Source of the DNA: Candidatus Nomurabacteria bacterium
Lineage (GTDB): Bacteria; Patescibacteriota; Minisyncoccia; Phycocordibacterales; SBAW01
Direction of reading: 5' to 3'
Length of the DNA: 64,000 nt
NCBI GenBank assembly: GCA_943348815.1
Contig: CALQYT010000001.1
Location: 12,488 to 76,487, forward strand
Of the stretch, positions 4,153 to 35,964 are shown one piece after another. The translations under genes and the position numbers were made by a program. Within the stretch, counting starts at the first letter, position 1. Every line of letters starts with the position of its first letter. Under the pieces are notes generated by a model, which was given only the letters and a program-made list of their open reading frames with translations, did no database searches and had not been told where the DNA came from.

Positions 4153-4240
4153 TGGTGTAGCATAGCAAACATTGGAGGGGTGGCAGACCACCGCCTACGG
4201 CGGGGCCTCGCCAAAGGCGATGGGTGGTCTACAAAACAAG

Positions 4241-4522
4241 ATGTACTTTGCATACATTCTACAGAGCAAAACCAGTGGCCGATATTATATAGGATCTACT
4301 CAAGATCTAGAGAACCGGCTGAAACAACACAATCGTGGTTCAAATAAATCCACACGCCCCTACCGCCCCTGGCAGCTCGTATACTCTGAATCTTTCCCGG
4401 ACAAAAAATCAGCATGGTTGCGCGAACAACAGATAAAAAGATATAAAGGCGGAGAAGCGTTCCACCGCTTGCTTCGGGATCCCGTCGAAGGCGGTGATAA
4501 AAAGCTTATAATAAACGCGTAA
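4241..4522 (+). CDS. GIY-YIG domain nuclease family protein (94 aa)
   Basis: MYFAYILQSKTSGRYYIGSTQDLENRLKQHN is a GIY-YIG signature. The TAA stop at 4520..4522 directly abuts tRNA-Ser +1 at 4523. Confidence 0.8.
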   Translation: MYFAYILQSKTSGRYYIGSTQDLENRLKQHNRGSNKSTRPYRPWQLVYSESFPDKKSAWLREQQIKRYKGGEAFHRLLRDPVEGGDKKLIINA

Positions 4523-4610
4523 GGAGGGATGGCAGAGTGGTCTATCGCACCGCACTTGAAATGCGGCGTACCGCAAGGTACCGGAGGTTCGAATCCTCCT
4601 CCCTCCGCCA
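4523..4610 (+). tRNA. tRNA-Ser (anticodon TGA), CCA encoded
   Basis: Acceptor stem GGAGGGA pairs with TCCCTCC. Anticodon stem CCGCA/TGCGG with loop CTTGAAA. Long variable arm CGTACCGCAAGGTAC is class II. T-arm CGGAG-GTTCGAATC-CTCCT; discriminator G followed by CCA. Confidence 0.9.
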
Positions 4611-6104
4611 AAATTCGGAATTCAAATTTCCGCCAAAAATATGGTCGGCGCGAAGCGCCGTCTGTTCTGCATTCCCCCCACAAAATCCTGATTCTGCAAG
4701 GATTCGCCACGCTCCGCGTGGCTCAAAAAAGACGGTTCGATCCTTAATTTGAAAGTTCGAACCGACTTTTTTGTACAAATGAATTTTTTCTTCATTTGTA
4801 CACTCGTTTGCCAATTCCACATTGAATTTCAAAAACTTTTCCGTAAGTTCGAACCGATTATTCGCTTTTTGCTCAAAAGCCGATAATTTCTCTTTGAGAA
4901 GCTGTTTTTGATTAACCAACGCACTTTTAGCGTCCCGATATTCCTCTAGTGAAAGTGCGTTCTCTAGGTAAGCGTTCATCAGCTTCTCAATCTTGGAATC
5001 CAAAAGAGAAATGTCTGCTTTTGTTTTGTCTGCAAAAAGCGTAGACGATTGGGCTTCCACCAATTTGTCTTTTTCGTTTTCCGCCAACATCCATTTAGCC
5101 CAATCGTCTGGCAAAGAAACTTTTTTGATTTCTTTTTGAATTTCGGAAGTGATGATTTCCTCACGAGTATATTTTTGTGAACAAGGATTTTTCCGCTTGG
5201 TACATCGTAAATAGTTATGACCTTTTTGTGTTTCGGTGGTAATAAAACATCCACATTCTCCACAACGGAAAAATCCTCTATACAAAAATGGTTTCAGTCC
5301 TTTCGGGTGAGGTTTAGATTTCCTCATCATCACTTCTTGAACAGAATCAAAAAGTTTCTTTGAAATAATCGGTTCGTGTTTGCCTTCGTGGATTTCACCG
5401 TTATACAACATTAAACCTGTGTATATCGGATTTTTCAAAAGTTTTTGATAATTCGACACCGCAAGTTCCTTTCCGCTTTTTCGTTTCAATCCAAGTTCGT
5501 TAAATTTGTCACGGAGCTGTCTCAAAGTGAAAGACCCAGACGAATATGCCTCAAATGTTTTCTTGATTAAAGGTGCGATACTTTCATCAACGACAATTTT
5601 CCCGCCCTCGTTTATATATCCGAGTGGAGACATTTGAGGCCATATACCGTCTTTCACTTTGTTTCTTTTTCCACGCTTGATATTCTCCGACAAATTGTCC
5701 ACATAATACTTGGATTGCGAAAAAGCGATTGAGAGCATGAATTTGCCTTGCGGTGTCGGATCACACCAGAAAGTTGGAAATTTTAGCTCGGCAATTTTTC
5801 CCGTATCGAGCAAATATATTATCTTTCCACCATCAACACTATTTCTCGCTAACCTATCGGGATGCCACGCTAAAATTCCGCTTGCCTCATTTTGCTCGAT
5901 ACGAAGAAGCATTTCATTAAATACTGGCCGACCCGGAACTTTAGCAGTTTGTTTTTCAACGAAGATATCTACAACTTCAATATTCTCTTTGAGGGCGAGA
6001 GATTTTAATTCGGCCAGTTGGTCTGAAATGCTTCTAACTTGCCGATCTTCAGTATCGGTAGATTTTCTTGTATATATGAAAAACTTTCTGGTGTGATTAT
6101 TCAT
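4542..6104 (-). CDS. large serine recombinase (resolvase/integrase family) with zinc-ribbon domain
   Basis: N-terminal FFIYTRKSTDTEDRQ...SISDQ is a serine-recombinase catalytic motif. Followed by a recombinase domain, a CGECGC...C zinc ribbon and a coiled-coil. The reading frame has no stop before running through IR-A into the tRNA, so the true C-terminus is uncertain. Confidence 0.85.
   Translation of the reverse strand: MNNHTRKFFIYTRKSTDTEDRQVRSISDQLAELKSLALKENIEVVDIFVEKQTAKVPGRPVFNEMLLRIEQNEASGILAWHPDRLARNSVDGGKIIYLLDTGKIAELKFPTFWCDPTPQGKFMLSIAFSQSKYYVDNLSENIKRGKRNKVKDGIWPQMSPLGYINEGGKIVVDESIAPLIKKTFEAYSSGSFTLRQLRDKFNELGLKRKSGKELAVSNYQKLLKNPIYTGLMLYNGEIHEGKHEPIISKKLFDSVQEVMMRKSKPHPKGLKPFLYRGFFRCGECGCFITTETQKGHNYLRCTKRKNPCSQKYTREEIITSEIQKEIKKVSLPDDWAKWMLAENEKDKLVEAQSSTLFADKTKADISLLDSKIEKLMNAYLENALSLEEYRDAKSALVNQKQLLKEKLSAFEQKANNRFELTEKFLKFNVELANECTNEEKIHLYKKVGSNFQIKDRTVFFEPRGAWRILAESGFCGGNAEQTALRADHIFGGNLNSEFWRREEDSNLRYLAVRRISSAVR
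4605..4724. repeat. inverted repeat A (120 bp, perfect partner at 6126..6245)
   Basis: The reverse complement of 4605..4724 is identical to 6126..6245 by hand alignment. Its first 6 nt (CCGCCA) are the 3' end of tRNA-Ser. Confidence 0.85.
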
Positions 6105-6125
6105 AGAATTGTATTGGCAAACGAG

Positions 6126-6245
6126 GAGCCACGCGGAGCGTGGCGAATCCTTGCAGAATCAGGATTTTGTGGGGGGAATGCAGAACAGACGGCGCTTCGC
6201 GCCGACCATATTTTTGGCGGAAATTTGAATTCCGAATTTTGGCGG
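6126..6245. repeat. inverted repeat B (partner of A)
   Basis: Identical to the reverse complement of 4605..4724. Confidence 0.85.
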
Positions 6246-6429
6246 TGTTTGTTGGACAAAGTTCGAAACTATTTCGAGCAGAATCCAAATGATTAAAGCG
6301 GACTCGGCAGGGCGAAACAATTTGTCTGGGGGAAAGGATTCGCCCTGCCTCGGCTGATTTCCCGCCCGCAGGAAGGGTCTGGGGAGGAATGCGGGCGGGT
6401 TTCGGATTCGCCAAATTCTTTTTTCGCCA
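6241..6429. repeat. inverted repeat C (189 bp, partner at 8252..8440, 1 mismatch)
   Basis: The reverse complement of 8252..8440 matches with a single A/G mismatch. It shares the GGCGG core with IR-B and contains internal hairpins such as CCCGCCCGCA...TGCGGGCGGG. Confidence 0.85.
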
Positions 6430-6503
6430 ATCAGAATTCATATATGGGATTATACCTCCATATTGAGGAGAAGCGCAATAGTTGATAACATGTTAATATA
6501 AAT

Positions 6504-6710
6504 ATGTCCCAAACTTCCAAAACATTAGGCAATAACATCAAACGCTTACGGCTTCGCCGTAAAATGTCGCAAGGCGACATTTGTCGAGCAATTAGCATGG
6601 ATAGGAGCTATATGAGCGCGATTGAGGGTGGTAAAGTAAATGTTACCTTAGTGGTTTTAGAAAAGCTCGCCAAAGCGCTTGATGTTTCAGTTGATGAGCT
6701 TTTGAAATAA
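6504..6710 (+). CDS. XRE-family helix-turn-helix transcriptional regulator (68 aa)
   Basis: LGNNIKRLRLRRKMSQGDICRAISMDRSYMSAIEGGKVNVTLVVLEKLAKAL is a canonical Cro/C1 HTH. Confidence 0.8.
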   Translation: MSQTSKTLGNNIKRLRLRRKMSQGDICRAISMDRSYMSAIEGGKVNVTLVVLEKLAKALDVSVDELLK

Positions 6711-6711
6711 T

Positions 6712-7083
6712 ATGGAAAAAAATTTAAAAACAATTATTTACGATTTAGAAACTTCCCTCCTAAAACCAGAGATTAGGTCGTCGACTAGTGATTTGGATTT
6801 GCTATTAGCCGACGATTTTAGAGAATTTGGAAGTTCGGGTGAAATTTATGACAAAAAACTTATACTTGAAAGGTTGCCAAAAGATACACAAACTTCACCT
6901 GTTGAGTTTTTGGTTTCTGATTTTCAAATTCAAGAGTTAGGTGAAAATATTGTTTTGGCAACCTTTAAGACAGACAAAACCTTGCCTGATAAAAGTCATG
7001 TTGGCGCTTTGAGAACTTCAATATGGAGAAAAAATAATAACAGTTGGCAAATGATTTTTCATCAAGGAACACCGACAAAATAA
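6712..7083 (+). CDS. NTF2-like/DUF4440-like domain protein
   Basis: LLADDFREFGSSGEIYDK...W...FHQGT pattern, recognised by memory only. AT-rich codon usage. Confidence 0.35.
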   Translation: MEKNLKTIIYDLETSLLKPEIRSSTSDLDLLLADDFREFGSSGEIYDKKLILERLPKDTQTSPVEFLVSDFQIQELGENIVLATFKTDKTLPDKSHVGALRTSIWRKNNNSWQMIFHQGTPTK

Positions 7084-7087
7084 TTCT

Positions 7088-24952: not shown

Positions 24953-25963
24953 ATGTCAAGCGAGTCTGAGACCCCTCAAAACGCCACGAGTTTAGACTCT
25001 ACTTTGCGCCCCGCCTCGTGGGACGAGTACGTCGGCCAAGAGCCGATCAAAAATAACCTCAGCATCCTCATTTCGGCTGCCAAAGAGCGCGGCACCCCGC
25101 CCGAACACGTGCTTTTTTACGGCCCACCGGGGCTTGGCAAGACCACCCTGGCGCACCTAATTGCCCACGAGCTTGGTGGCACGCTCCGCTCAACCTCGGG
25201 CCCTGCAATCGAGAAAGTTGGCGACCTCGCGGCACTCCTCACCAACATGGGGCCAGGCGATATTTTGTTTATCGACGAGATCCACCGCCTACCGCGCGCG
25301 ATTGAGGAGGTCCTCTACCCTGCCATGGAGTCGGGGGTGCTTAATATCATCATTGGCAAAGGCCCGAGTGCGCGCACGATTGAGTTGCCACTGCCGCCAT
25401 TTACGTTGGTGGCCGCAACGACGCGTGTTGCCGAACTTTCGGCACCGCTGCGCTCGCGTTTTAGCGGCGGCACCTTCCGCTTGGAGTTTTATAGCCAACA
25501 AGACATTGAGCAGATCGTTAAACGCTCCGCTAAAATTTTAAAAGTGGAAATTGATAAAGCTGGTGTGCAAGAAATTGCCAAACGCAGCCGCGCCACACCG
25601 CGCACGGCTAATTATCTTCTTAAACGCGCGCGCGACGTCGCACAACTAAAGCGCGCTCCTCTTTCGGCAGCGTTGGTAGACGAAGCGCTCGCGATGCTCG
25701 AGGTAGACGCACTCGGCCTAACCCCCGTTGATCGCAAATTACTTGGCGTACTTATTGAGCGCTTTAATGGGGGGCCCGCAGGGTTAAGTGCGTTGGCGGC
25801 AGGACTGCAAGAAGAGCCCGCGACTATTTCGGAAGTGCACGAACCATTCCTCCTACAACTCGGGTTAATCGAGCGCACCTCCCGCGGCCGTGTGGCCACC
25901 AAAAAAGCCTACGAACATTTGGGTAAAAAAGTACCTAGTGATTTAAACGAAAAATTATTGTAA
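24953..25963 (+). CDS. ruvB: Holliday junction DNA helicase RuvB
   Basis: LFYGPPGLGKTTLAHLIAHELG, DEIHRL, and sensor motifs throughout. Confidence 0.9.
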   Translation: MSSESETPQNATSLDSTLRPASWDEYVGQEPIKNNLSILISAAKERGTPPEHVLFYGPPGLGKTTLAHLIAHELGGTLRSTSGPAIEKVGDLAALLTNMGPGDILFIDEIHRLPRAIEEVLYPAMESGVLNIIIGKGPSARTIELPLPPFTLVAATTRVAELSAPLRSRFSGGTFRLEFYSQQDIEQIVKRSAKILKVEIDKAGVQEIAKRSRATPRTANYLLKRARDVAQLKRAPLSAALVDEALAMLEVDALGLTPVDRKLLGVLIERFNGGPAGLSALAAGLQEEPATISEVHEPFLLQLGLIERTSRGRVATKKAYEHLGKKVPSDLNEKLL

Positions 25964-25972
25964 ATTCATTCT

Positions 25973-26497
25973 ATGGCAGGACACAGCAAGTGGGCAAAGC
26001 TTAAACATTACAAAGGCAAGACCGACGCACAAAAGGCCAAACTTTTTGGCAAGTTGGTGCGGATTATTGGCGTGGAGATTAAAAAGTCGAAGGGCGACAA
26101 AACCTCCCCCGGTGTGCGCGCCGCGGTAGAAAAAGCACGTGCGGCAAATATGCCAAACGACAATATTGAGCGCGCACTTTCTAAATCGGATGGGGCCGAA
26201 TTGGAGCAGGTACTCTACGAAGCCTATGGCCCCGGTGGTTGCGCGCTGATAATTGAGGGCTACACCGACTCGCGCAACCGCACCTCGCAAGAACTCAAAC
26301 ATCTTTTGAGTCTGCATGGCGGTAGTTTAGCCAACCCGGGCGCGGCGATGTGGGCATTTCAAAAAAATGCCGAAGGAAAATACGAACCGATGGTGCCGGT
26401 CGAGTTGTCTGACGAAGACGCACAAAAAATGGCTGAATTGAGCGATGCGCTCGAGGAACACGACGATGTGAGCGAAGTTTATTCCAGCGCAGCATAG
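25973..26497 (+). CDS. yebC: YebC/PmpR family DNA-binding regulator (short, 174 aa)
   Basis: MAGHSKWAKLKHYKGKTDAQKAKLFGKL... is a YebC N-terminal signature. C-terminus ends DDVSEVY. Shorter than the typical ~240 aa. Confidence 0.75.
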   Translation: MAGHSKWAKLKHYKGKTDAQKAKLFGKLVRIIGVEIKKSKGDKTSPGVRAAVEKARAANMPNDNIERALSKSDGAELEQVLYEAYGPGGCALIIEGYTDSRNRTSQELKHLLSLHGGSLANPGAAMWAFQKNAEGKYEPMVPVELSDEDAQKMAELSDALEEHDDVSEVYSSAA

Positions 26498-26506
26498 CCG
26501 ACGCTG

Positions 26507-26556
26507 GAAAGTATCAAGTAGCAAGTTTCAGGTATCAAACAAGTGGTAAAGTTTTA
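26507..26556. repeat. MITE-like element, left inverted-repeat arm
   Basis: gaaagtatcaagtagcaagtttcaggtatcaaacaagtggtaaagtttta is an imperfect inverted repeat of 26928..26991. Confidence 0.55.
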
Positions 26557-26559
26557 GGT

Positions 26560-26913
26560 GTGGAAGACACAAAACCCAGGAGTAATTTGGAAGAAAGGAC
26601 CGAACGCTTTGCGCGCGATATGCGTACTTTTGTAAAACAACTGCCACGAAACACCGCTAGTGTCGAAGACGGCACTCAGCTTATTCGTTCTTCCGGTTCT
26701 ATTGGAGCGAATTACATCGAGGCCCAGGAGGCGCTGAGCCGAAAAGATTTTGCCATGCGAATAAAAATCTCCCGCAAAGAAGCCAAAGAAAGCAAGTACT
26801 GGTTGAATCTACTCGAAGTGCCCGAGGCTCTCACCCATGAACACAAACGATTATTGGGAGAAGTTTCTGAGCTACTGAAGATTTTTAGCGCGATTGTACA
26901 AAAAGTGAGCTGA
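26560..26913 (+). CDS. four-helix-bundle protein (TIGR02436 / 23S rRNA intervening-sequence protein family)
   Basis: ...LIRSSGSIGANYIEAQEALSRKDFAMRIKISRKEAKESKYWLNLL... is the family signature. Inserted between yebC and ruvC, which are usually adjacent. Confidence 0.8.
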   Translation: MEDTKPRSNLEERTERFARDMRTFVKQLPRNTASVEDGTQLIRSSGSIGANYIEAQEALSRKDFAMRIKISRKEAKESKYWLNLLEVPEALTHEHKRLLGEVSELLKIFSAIVQKVS

Positions 26914-26927
26914 GTCTGAACTTAGAC

Positions 26928-26991
26928 CTTAAAATTTTGCTTACTTGATACCTGTTTGCTACTTGTCCCCTGATACTTGATACTTACCCGT
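26928..26991. repeat. MITE-like element, right inverted-repeat arm, ending at the ruvC ATG
   Basis: ttaaaattttgcttacttgatacctgtttgctacttgtcccctgatacttgatacttacccgt. The 3' end shares the ...CTTGATACTTGATACTTAnnCnTATG structure seen upstream of ruvA and rnpA. Confidence 0.55.
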
Positions 26992-27462
26992 ATGAGAGTA
27001 CTCGCCTTTGACCCCGGCTATGAGCGCCTGGGTGCCGCCGTATTAGAGAAAGAAAATGGAAAGGAAACCCTCCTGTTTTCAACCTGTATCCGCACGCTCG
27101 CCAAAGTGAGCTTTGAAGAGCGGTTAAAAAAGTTAGGGGGCGAGGCCGAAGCGCTGATAAAGGAGTGGCACCCCAACGCCGTAGCCCTTGAAGAAGTTTT
27201 TTTTGAAAAGAACGCTAAAACCGCTATGCAAGTGGCCGAGGTTCGCGGCGCCTTAATGTACATTGCGGCTGCACAAAACTTAAAAGTTCATCATTACACC
27301 CCCGGCGAGGTTAAGGTGGCCGTAACGGGTTATGGGGGTAGTGACAAGAAGGCCATCGCCGCGATGGTGCCCAAATTATTGCGTATTTCTCTAGGCAAAC
27401 GCCTTGACGACGAGCTCGATGCTATTGCCGTGGGGATTACTTGTCTTGCCAGCGTGCGCTAA
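26992..27462 (+). CDS. ruvC: crossover junction endodeoxyribonuclease RuvC
   Basis: MRVLAFDPGYERLGAAVLE... is a RuvC N-terminus; 156 aa. Confidence 0.85.
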   Translation: MRVLAFDPGYERLGAAVLEKENGKETLLFSTCIRTLAKVSFEERLKKLGGEAEALIKEWHPNAVALEEVFFEKNAKTAMQVAEVRGALMYIAAAQNLKVHHYTPGEVKVAVTGYGGSDKKAIAAMVPKLLRISLGKRLDDELDAIAVGITCLASVR

Positions 27463-34243: not shown

Positions 34244-34378
34244 ATGTCAGTTACGTATCAACCTAAAAAACGTAAACGCGCCCGTTCACACGGATTTCTG
34301 AAGCGTAAATCAACGGCCGGGGGCCGCAAGACCGTTTTGCGCCGCCGCCGCAAGGGCCGCAAACGCCTGACGGCGTAG
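34244..34378 (+). CDS. rpmH: 50S ribosomal protein L34 (44 aa), not in the ORF track
   Basis: Translates to [44 protein letters not shown]. Sits in the canonical position upstream of rnpA and divergent from dnaA. Confidence 0.85.
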
Positions 34379-34440
34379 GTAGCAAGTAGCAGGTACCAAG
34401 TATCAAAAACTTGTTACTTGAAACTTGAGATTTGATACTT
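34379..34440. repeat. MITE-like GTATCAAG/CTTGATAC element, short empty copy, ending at the rnpA ATG
   Basis: agcaagtagcaggtaccaagtatcaaaaa | cttgttacttgaaacttgagatttgatactt has the same two halves as the copies at 13331 and 26507/26928. Confidence 0.5.
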
Positions 34441-34731
34441 ATGCTCTCAAAGAATCAGAGACTTAGAGCATCAGAGGTTCGTGAGATACTAAGCAAGGGT
34501 CGCTCGGTGCGCGGTACCGGTGTTTCGGCCAAAGTGCTGCCCGGCCGCCGCGCCGCTGCGGTGGTCGTAAGCTCTAAGGTGGCCAAGAGCGCGGTAGAGC
34601 GCAACCGCATCCGCCGCCTTGCCTACCGGGTGCTTGCCGGCTGTCTTCCCGAGGTCCGTGCCGCCTTCTTTATTGTCGACAAAAAATTTGAATCTGCAGA
34701 ACTTGTCACCCTATGTTCGAAACTATCTTAG
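34441..34731 (+). CDS. rnpA: ribonuclease P protein component
   Basis: MLSKNQRLRASEVREIL...NRIRRLAYRVL is an RnpA signature, and the gene follows rpmH. Confidence 0.8.
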   Translation: MLSKNQRLRASEVREILSKGRSVRGTGVSAKVLPGRRAAAVVVSSKVAKSAVERNRIRRLAYRVLAGCLPEVRAAFFIVDKKFESAELVTLCSKLS

Positions 34732-35447: not shown

Positions 35448-35481
35448 AAGTCTAGGTGGTCAAGTGTTTTGTTTTTGATTT

Positions 35482-35964
35482 TTGGTTTATAGTGCGTGCA
35501 TGGACGCCGCACTCCTTAAAAGCCTGGTAACCGAGCTCCTCACCCTTCTTGAGGTAGCCGTAGGTTCGGTGGAGGTTAAGACCGGTCACCGCACGTTGGT
35601 GCAAGTAACCTCTGAGGATTCGGCCCGACTCATTGGCCCTCAAGGAGAGAGCCTGCGCTCGCTCAATACCCTTGCCCGCCGGTTGGTTGAGGCTAAACAC
35701 GGCGAGCAGGCGGCCAACTTTTTAATTGACGTCAACGGCTATCATGAAGCGCAAATGGAAAAGGTACGCGCCCAGGCGCGCATGATGGCACAGCGCGCAC
35801 GGCTTTTTAAACACGATGTCGAGATGAGCCCCATGAGCCCGTACGAACGGTTAGTGGTGCACGAACTATTTTCAGAAGATCCAGAAATTAAGACCGAGTC
35901 GGCAGGCGAAGGAAAGTTCCGCCACATTATACTCAAATACAAAGACGCCGGGTTTGTGAGCTAA
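35482..35964 (+). CDS. jag: Jag/KhpB-like KH + R3H domain RNA-binding protein
   Basis: KH region (...VQVTSEDSARLIGPQGESLRSL...) and R3H region (...MSPYERLVVHELF...) in the canonical rnpA-yidC-jag order. Start may instead be the ATG at 35500. Confidence 0.7.
   Translation: MVYSACMDAALLKSLVTELLTLLEVAVGSVEVKTGHRTLVQVTSEDSARLIGPQGESLRSLNTLARRLVEAKHGEQAANFLIDVNGYHEAQMEKVRAQARMMAQRARLFKHDVEMSPMSPYERLVVHELFSEDPEIKTESAGEGKFRHIILKYKDAGFVS

Follow-up and report, generated by a model that had tools for sequence, protein, structure and literature searches.

Inverted heptamer arrays enclose a four-helix-bundle gene between yebC and ruvC of a Patescibacteria genome and resemble an rRNA intervening sequence

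A four-helix-bundle gene between inverted heptamer arrays

We analysed a 64,000-nt stretch of a Candidatus Nomurabacteria genome (contig CALQYT010000001.1, positions 12,488 to 76,487; hereafter the window), which has 50.7% G+C and its closest named homologues among Patescibacteria (Kaiserbacteria/Paceibacterota), and found a cassette at 26501-26991 in which a four-helix-bundle (4HB) gene lies between two inverted arrays of tandem heptamers, in the spacer between yebC and ruvC. The 4HB gene (26560-26913, plus strand) has a GTG start, encodes 117 aa and belongs to TIGR02436/PF05635 by its family-model scores and predicted fold; an alternative TTG start at 26587 on the same strand yields a 108-aa form (P0001). 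On the upstream side, ruvB (24953-25963) stands just ahead of a short, 174-aa form of yebC (25973-26497, plus strand), which is co-oriented with the 4HB gene and has its stop 3 nt away from where pairing of the left arm begins. The downstream neighbour, ruvC (26992-27462, plus strand), is co-oriented as well. The first-pass annotation of this DNA, made from its letters only, had placed a 4HB gene with inverted arms between yebC and ruvC, and it was right about both the arrangement and its coordinates.

The arms, folded alone, delimit a left arm at 26501-26561, which reaches the GTG start, and a right arm at 26926-26991 (both given on the plus strand), and they form 51 inter-arm pairs (5 of them G-U) at -50.9 kcal/mol (z -5.2). 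The fold of the full 498 nt likewise pairs the arms and puts the open reading frame (ORF) in the loop, so the paired arms enclose the ORF including its start codon. A repeat search gave the same picture, with 26506-26544 pairing with 26950-26988 (39 nt, 77% complementary). Each arm is built of 4-5 tandem heptamers, (A/G)GTANCA at the left and the complement at the right. The core of the left array (26509-26543, plus strand) reads AAGTATC/AAGTAGC/AAGTTTC/AGGTATC/AAACAAG, and the right array, which ends ...CTTGATACCTGTTTGCTACTTGTCCCCTGATACTTGATACTTACC, stops 3 nt short of the ruvC ATG, and the interval from the right arm to that ATG has no Shine-Dalgarno sequence.

We found no family at gathering score in Rfam, only noise below threshold (Sphinx_2, Ocean-VII, MIR172). 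The cassette sits between yebC and ruvC and not in an rRNA helix, and the 64-kb window holds no rRNA gene. An RNase III signature motif was absent from the window, which is the part of the genome covered.

Two hairpins of the same kind lack the gene

The window holds two further copies of the element, both without an ORF. Hairpin A (13330-13421; arms 13333-13363 and 13385-13415, 21 nt apart; fold z -4.0) fills the spacer between the divergent genes rpsT (13058-13303, minus strand) and ruvA (ATG at 13422), and it corresponds to the related ORF-less element that the first-pass annotation had listed at 13331-13421. That list was short by one, since a third and more diverged copy, hairpin C (34372-34445, plus strand), fills the spacer from rpmH (34244-34378) to rnpA (ATG at 34442). 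Hairpin C folds at -30.5 kcal/mol (z -6.9) on the plus strand versus -14.7 kcal/mol (z -1.7) on the minus strand.

Hence, three copies lie within 64 kb, namely A, the cassette (element B) and C, and they are mutually 63-87% alike. Their six arms align over ~38 columns with 17 invariant positions, and what they share is tandem heptamers, more than the short motif by which they were first related. We found GTATCAAG nine times in the window versus 1.16 expected (none of 100 shuffles reached nine); six of the nine matches fall in elements A and B, and element C has none. Clusters of GTANCAR and its complement are confined to the three elements within the window. At the elements, at least three 7-nt intergenic units follow each other head to tail, as in STRR repeats.

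A generic lag-7 detector picked up arrays of 7-nt period at A, at the left arm of B and at C. It was dropped as a way of counting ORF-less hairpins, as at 17/21 it found copy C only and at 15/21 it skipped the right arm of B and took a T-rich spacer (35463-35494).

The hairpin at the rpsT/ruvA site folds better on the minus (rpsT-sense) strand, both in the window (13325-13425, -26.3 versus -23.0 kcal/mol for minus and plus) and in a relative, locus L224 (1908-2003, -34.1 versus -23.4 kcal/mol). This strand preference is the opposite of that of copy C and of most cassettes.

The 4HB gene is conserved like its neighbours

The 4HB protein scores 72.4 bits against TIGR02436 (cut-off 24) and 51.6 bits against PF05635 (cut-off 33.8). 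Its AlphaFold monomer (pLDDT 91.9) has helices at residues 7-26, 32-56, 61-84 and 89-116. Foldseek searches with this model returned 2RLD (BT_0352; TM-score 0.79) and 2GSC (Xcc0516; 0.77-0.79), as well as Avd, a protein of diversity-generating retroelements (DGRs) (4DWL, 8UB7; ~0.70). By sequence, 2RLD, a PDB entry of five chains, matches the 4HB protein with E 2e-12, and with 8e-19 when a profile is used. The motif R-x3-S-x3-N-x2-E is present, with R43, S47, N51 and E54 invariant in the homologue alignment, and the leading G of the published GxxRxxxSxxxNxxE (Lin 2006, Zhang 2013) is off the quoted spacing in the protein of the window. An exact-sequence look-up of the 4HB protein and of P0001 matched no contig.

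Comparison of the window with a relative that carries the same cassette (L001) put the proportion of nonsynonymous differences (pN) at 0.18 in the 4HB gene, 0.19 in yebC and 0.25 in ruvC; synonymous sites have reached saturation (pS 0.75-0.90). Because its pN is like that of the housekeeping neighbours yebC and ruvC, the comparison indicates that the 4HB gene is under purifying selection and is functional, not a decaying passenger.

The cassette is present or absent as a unit

In the closer relatives L203, L204 and L205 (RuvC 86, 78 and 77% identical), the yebC stop is followed after only 14, 12 and 2 nt by the ruvC ATG, and neither arms nor a 4HB gene are present at yebC-ruvC. All three keep the synteny T2SSE-ruvB-yebC-ruvC-tyrS (minus strand)-penicillin-binding protein (PBP) gene. 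Since these relatives retain ruvB-yebC-ruvC with a spacer of 2-14 nt, the alignments indicate that the cassette is an insertion relative to them. The same order disposes of the earlier suggestion that ruvB had been displaced: ruvB lies upstream of yebC in relatives that have no cassette, so its position is unrelated to the element.

The more distant L001 and L002 (YebC 71%, RuvC 65%, 4HB 75%) carry the cassette at yebC-ruvC with arms of the same kind. A relative with the gene at this position but without repeats would have spoken against the element; L001 has the gene together with its repeats. In L003, the same AAGTA(A/T)C arms flank a 4HB gene of 69% identity at an unrelated site, leuS-prsW. 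Judged from these occupied and empty sites, the 4HB gene and both arms are gained or lost as one unit.

The rpsT-ruvA site behaves similarly. In L222 and L223 (RuvA 74 and 71%) the rpsT-ruvA spacer is 24 nt long and hairpin-free, and in L224 (RuvA 59%), on the contig that also carries L001, it holds a hairpin of this family. Hence, the genomes of the window and of L001 share elements A and B, and the closer relatives sampled lack both; to produce this pattern, either a single lineage must have lost A and B precisely or the elements must have been gained repeatedly at these sites.

The anatomy recurs across phyla

We scanned metagenomes with protein patterns from the coding region, which gave 80 loci of 55-86% identity, and aligned 150 nt upstream of each gene to the reverse complement of 150 nt downstream, in comparison with shuffles. 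Flank complementarity reached z ≥ 5 in 66 of the 77 testable loci, lag-7 self-identity was raised in both flanks, and arm pairing averaged ~45 bp. As a control, the same flank test on 66 genes of the window gave a median z of 0.25, and the 4HB gene came out on top at 9.3.

More distant homologues were found in cyanobacteria, Chloroflexota, Bacillota, Spirochaetota and Bacteroidota. Of those on plasmids (30-50% identity; hosts Nostoc, Aulosira, Planktothrix, Euhalothece, Gloeocapsa, Chlorohelix, Monoglobus and Treponema), 13 of 16 pass the same flank test, and so does a chromosomal locus of Cyclobacteriaceae (L077). The plasmid brackets of Nostoc, Aulosira and Euhalothece are perfect STRR-like arrays, such as (AATTCGC)4 ... 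(TTGCGAA)4 in Nostoc punctiforme. Altogether, sequence comparison establishes that a gene set within inverted heptamers recurs across phyla.

The loci use 22 heptamer types (AAATTCG/AAATCCG, AAATCCT/AAACTCT, AAATAAC, AAGTATC and others), which broadly track the protein clades. Since the arms lie a 360-nt ORF apart and heptamer types differ, we used a permutation test on the consensus heptamer of each locus: left and reverse-complemented right consensus were 1.22 positions apart within a locus versus 2.24 between loci, a difference reached by none of 10000 permutations. In many loci the left arm enters the start codon, where ATGACC... pairs with GGTCAT at the right.

At 63 of 67 loci the gene upstream of the 4HB gene points the same way, versus a baseline of 68% for other adjacent gene pairs at the same loci (p 2.7e-7), and the downstream gene does so at 52 of 65. 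The upstream bias fits expression of the 4HB gene by read-through. In 57 of 76 loci the sense-strand fold is more stable than its antisense counterpart (Wilcoxon p 3.7e-5), consistent with an element acting as RNA. None of the 20 related loci without called neighbours lies in an rRNA gene. Among 2.9 million viral contigs we found no relatives, and a phage collection gave two weak matches only.

Several of the distant 4HB genes with heptamer arms lie in or beside defence operons (L206, L207, L209, L210, L215, L217, L218). The contexts are drmD-4HB-mmeI (DISARM), a place between or next to cas2 and cas1, hsdS-4HB-hsdR, helicase-4HB-N6 methylase and DUF1156-4HB-Swt1 HEPN. These 4HB genes are probably insertions and not components of the systems, which matters for annotation: genes called 'four helix bundle protein' in cas, restriction-modification and DISARM operons probably deserve the same caution.

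Some loci are more elaborate. L134, L135, L181, L186, L196, L206 and L213 have additional or nested arrays, in some cases with a second type of heptamer, and in Planktothrix (AATCCCC)6 stands beside (AATCGTA)4. In L196 (3336-3486), a tRNA gene begins ~70 nt past the 4HB stop, directly after the right heptamer arm.

Most heptamer arrays lack the gene

A 19-base pattern taken from the arms has at least 119 matches in species-representative genomes versus ~2 expected by chance, nearly all of them (CTTGATA)n, in Bacteroidota, Chloroflexota, Verrucomicrobiota, Gammaproteobacteria, Saccharibacteria, Omnitrophota and Planctomycetota. A first hidden Markov model, built from close homologues only, overlooked the distant 4HB gene of L077, and the profile was then iterated; with the iterated profile, a nearby 4HB gene turned up at 3 of the 119 genomic (CTTGATA)n loci. 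On this count, we no longer took each such array as the sign of a cassette. An inverted partner was found upstream of the array in 18 of 113 cases and downstream in two. Hence, the association is one-way: the 4HB gene is nearly always in a heptamer palindrome, and most heptamer arrays are geneless. An origin of the arrays by repeated 7-bp target duplications was rejected, because such duplications are direct and not inverted.

The cassette resembles ORF-carrying 23S intervening sequences

Intervening sequences (IVSs) of 23S rRNA also exist as ORF-less hairpins, in Salmonella, Campylobacter and Yersinia, and these short extended hairpins coexist with ORF-carrying versions. Copies A and C are like these ORF-less IVSs, with the heptamer build being established for the Coxiella IVS only, and are unlike them in lying in spacers between protein-coding genes.

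In the ORF-carrying 23S IVSs of Coxiella and Leptospira, as in the cassette, a 4HB (S23p/PF05635) ORF lies in a loop closed by terminal inverted repeats. The IVS of Coxiella burnetii is 428-444 nt long and has terminal inverted repeats that form a 28-bp stem (Warrier et al., PMC4990558), within which RNase III cuts (PMC4990558). Its S23p ORF is preceded by two or three tandem GACAGAT heptamers, depending on the strain, and one degenerate unit (PMC4990558). Hence, the link to the IVS family drawn in the first-pass annotation holds, down to the heptamers upstream of the ORF.

We found further agreement in detail. In both elements the stem includes tandem heptamers, which immediately precede the ORF start, and the unit is ~430-490 nt long. 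The Coxiella IVS is transcribed within a host transcript, as the cassette probably is too. Heptamer copy number that differs between strains is a feature of the Coxiella IVS, as is RNase III cleavage, which is an analogy for the cassette. The elements differ in their host transcript, which here would be the mRNA of a yebC-ruvC operon and not helix 45 of 23S rRNA, and in their heptamer, which is AAGTATC here and GACAGAT there. They also differ in the state of the ORF, since that of Coxiella is reported to be decaying and probably untranslated, in contrast to the purifying selection indicated here.

The heptamers themselves have precedents. Tandem heptamers in bacterial intergenic DNA are known, with their function unexplained (PMC4679880, PMC2700814); they repeat every 7 nt and are often found shortly before start codons (PMC4679880). 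For Xanthomonas GGGAATC, 70-75 arrays or pairs are convergent and inverted and are potential stem-loops (PMC4692102). The arms share the 7-nt period and the intergenic position with the cyanobacterial STRR, Xanthomonas GGGAATC, Beggiatoaceae TAACTGA and Geobacter heptanucleotide elements, and they differ in that those papers draw no link to a 4HB gene, whereas here the arrays bracket one gene family. Genes named 23S_rRNA_IVP have been noted in cas loci and in rRNA insertions of the candidate phyla radiation (PMC3936711, PMC11270868). A full-text search found no literature linking stand-alone 4HB genes to flanking heptamer palindromes outside rRNA, and a description elsewhere is possible; IVS-type cassettes outside rRNA thus seem undescribed so far.

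The IVSs of rRNA and their S23p ORF have been unexplained for ~30 years, and so has the excess of tandem heptamers (STRR, TAACTGA, GGGAATC). This locus and ~100 related loci show that the anatomy of an IVS is not special to rRNA, as it is found in operon spacers of at least six phyla, defence operons included, and that the unit coexists with ORF-less hairpins of the same heptamer type. With culturable hosts such as Nostoc and Bacteroides, the function of the S23p/4HB proteins and of the heptamer repeats becomes experimentally approachable.

A probable IVS-type insertion in an operon spacer

We consider it fairly probable that the cassette is co-transcribed with yebC and ruvC, that its arm stem is processed like that of an rRNA IVS, which makes the insertion tolerable, and that the ORF-less copies are the hairpin-only form. 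Read-through from yebC would transcribe the cassette, and the arms would then form a long, imperfect double-stranded RNA stem. This stem would be processed, most likely by RNase III by analogy to the rRNA IVSs. Once cut, the transcript would yield separate yebC and ruvC messages, and the 4HB message would be released or its translation limited; because the host messages would be separated in this way, an operon could tolerate the insertion. The hairpins at 13330-13421 and 34372-34445 would correspond to the ORF-less hairpins of IVSs.

Several results weigh against this account. RNase III cleavage at these loci is argued from analogy only, and the gap between sense and antisense folds is modest (mean -51.6 versus -47.4 kcal/mol). 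The hairpin at the rpsT/ruvA site folds better on the minus strand, and hairpin A lies between divergent genes, outside any operon. Most (CTTGATA)n arrays stand alone, with no inverted partner and no 4HB gene, so heptamer arrays exist independently of the cassette. In addition, the perfect identity of units in the cyanobacterial loci points to an active process at the level of DNA, which a model based on RNA structure does not explain.

A possible, though rather doubtful, extension concerns the protein. Avd forms a positively charged barrel of five subunits, and this barrel binds a specific stem in the RNA transcript of the DGR (bioRxiv 10.1101/2023.10.23.563531). Because Avd has the same four-helix-bundle fold and binds an RNA stem, RNA binding is plausible for the 4HB family by analogy, although Avd has ~15% sequence identity to the 4HB protein and works with a reverse transcriptase and template/variable repeats, neither of which is seen here, in another genomic setting. 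In this view, TIGR02436 proteins would be dedicated to tandem-heptamer hairpins: the 4HB protein might form an Avd-like pentameric barrel and attach, at the RNA or the DNA level, to the 4-5 heptamers in the stem of its cassette. The cassette would thereby become a self-contained 'operon IVS' that spreads horizontally, and ORF-less palindromes would be non-autonomous and served in trans. If true, these derivatives would be copies A and C, the STRR-type inverted arrays of cyanobacteria and Xanthomonas and the ORF-less rRNA IVSs. One account would then cover the ORF of IVSs, the question why heptamer repeats are so common in bacteria, and the many stand-alone 4HB genes, including those in CRISPR, DISARM and restriction-modification operons.

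Alternative explanations

The cassette could instead be mobile as DNA, with the arms as terminal inverted repeats that hold tandem sites for a transposase or recombinase, the 4HB gene as cargo or accessory and the ORF-less copies as relatives of MITEs (miniature transposable elements with inverted repeats). The presence/absence polymorphism with clean boundaries, the occurrence of the same arms at unrelated sites and the conserved outer ends GGAAAGTATCAAG...CTTGATACTTA(C)C of copies A and B would all be expected of such an element. The ends of Tn7, Mu and Ac/En-type transposons resemble multiple inverted subterminal repeats of this kind, and MITEs share the inverted ends and the ORF-less short copies beside a longer one.

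The first-pass annotation had likewise seen a cargo-carrying version of a miniature element. Of this, the part that stands is that gene and arms form one insertable unit, empty in L203-L205 and occupied elsewhere in L003. What does not fit is that, by eye and without a formal search, we found no target-site duplication at A (GGATGC/TATGAT), B (GACGCT/CGTATG) or C. Moreover, no transposase adjoins any of the ~100 cassettes examined, and the three copies in the 64 kb are diverged (63-87%) and not near-identical. The 4HB gene is conserved like its housekeeping neighbours and inherited together with them, and the strong co-orientation with the upstream gene is unexpected for a transposon that inserts either way round. 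The ends are tandem 7-mers, unlike those of MITEs, and such heptamer arrays are widespread without the 4HB gene. With these points counted, we regard a mobile DNA cassette as unlikely.

It is quite unlikely that the arms are expression signals of the host with the position of the gene being incidental, the right arm serving as a promoter for a leaderless message and the palindrome as a bidirectional promoter or a terminator. Tandem CTTGATA units, the AAGTATC type, do spell TTGATA-N17-GATACT, and in A, B, L001, L003 and L224 the right arm's final GATACT is placed 6-8 nt ahead of the ATG of the downstream gene (window 13410-13424 and 26981-26994; L001 4400-4421; L003 4397-4416; L224 1990-2003). 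Even the empty site of L203 (2990-3003) has TATACT 6 nt before the ruvC ATG, and copy A lies between divergent genes, as a bidirectional promoter would. However, the plus-strand match in the right arm is 8/12 only and was not called by the scanner, which found weak promoter-like matches in the arms on the minus strand only. In copy C, only 1 nt separates GATACT from the ATG. None of the other 21 heptamer types (AAATTCG, AAATCCT, AATTCGC and others) spells sigma-70 hexamers, yet they are inverted and 7-periodic, and a promoter requires no complementary partner 400 nt away. As for a terminator, the promoter/terminator scan found no intrinsic-terminator-like site in the arms.

As a separate observation, the spacing of GATACT to ATG in the absence of a Shine-Dalgarno sequence would fit promoters of leaderless messages in this lineage.

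That the 4HB protein is an Avd-type accessory subunit of a DGR is extremely improbable, since, despite the fold match to 4DWL and 8UB7 (TM-score ~0.70) and the inclusion of Avd-like proteins in PF05635 (PMC10053308; bioRxiv 10.1101/2023.10.23.563531), the 64-kb window has no ORF like a YxDD reverse transcriptase (the sole match is a penicillin-binding protein), the neighbours are ruvB, yebC, ruvC, tyrS and a PBP gene, no reverse transcriptase is among the called neighbours of related loci, and the 2.9 million viral contigs hold no relatives.

Other observations in the window

Elsewhere in the window (4523-8440), a minus-strand ORF of 520 aa (4542-6104), which overlaps a tRNA gene (4523-4607), has an N-terminal part resembling that of large serine recombinases, by eye from its translation. 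Near-perfect inverted repeats bound each of two adjacent segments, namely 4605-4724/6126-6245 (120 nt, 100%) and 6241-6429/8252-8440 (189 nt, 99%). Region 4523-8440 resembles an element that is integrated or can invert, or else two inversion states assembled together. Immediately ahead of the tRNA gene, a 116-aa ORF (4172-4522) has a GIY-YIG-like motif (YFAYILQS...GRYYIGST...RLKQHN), again by eye.

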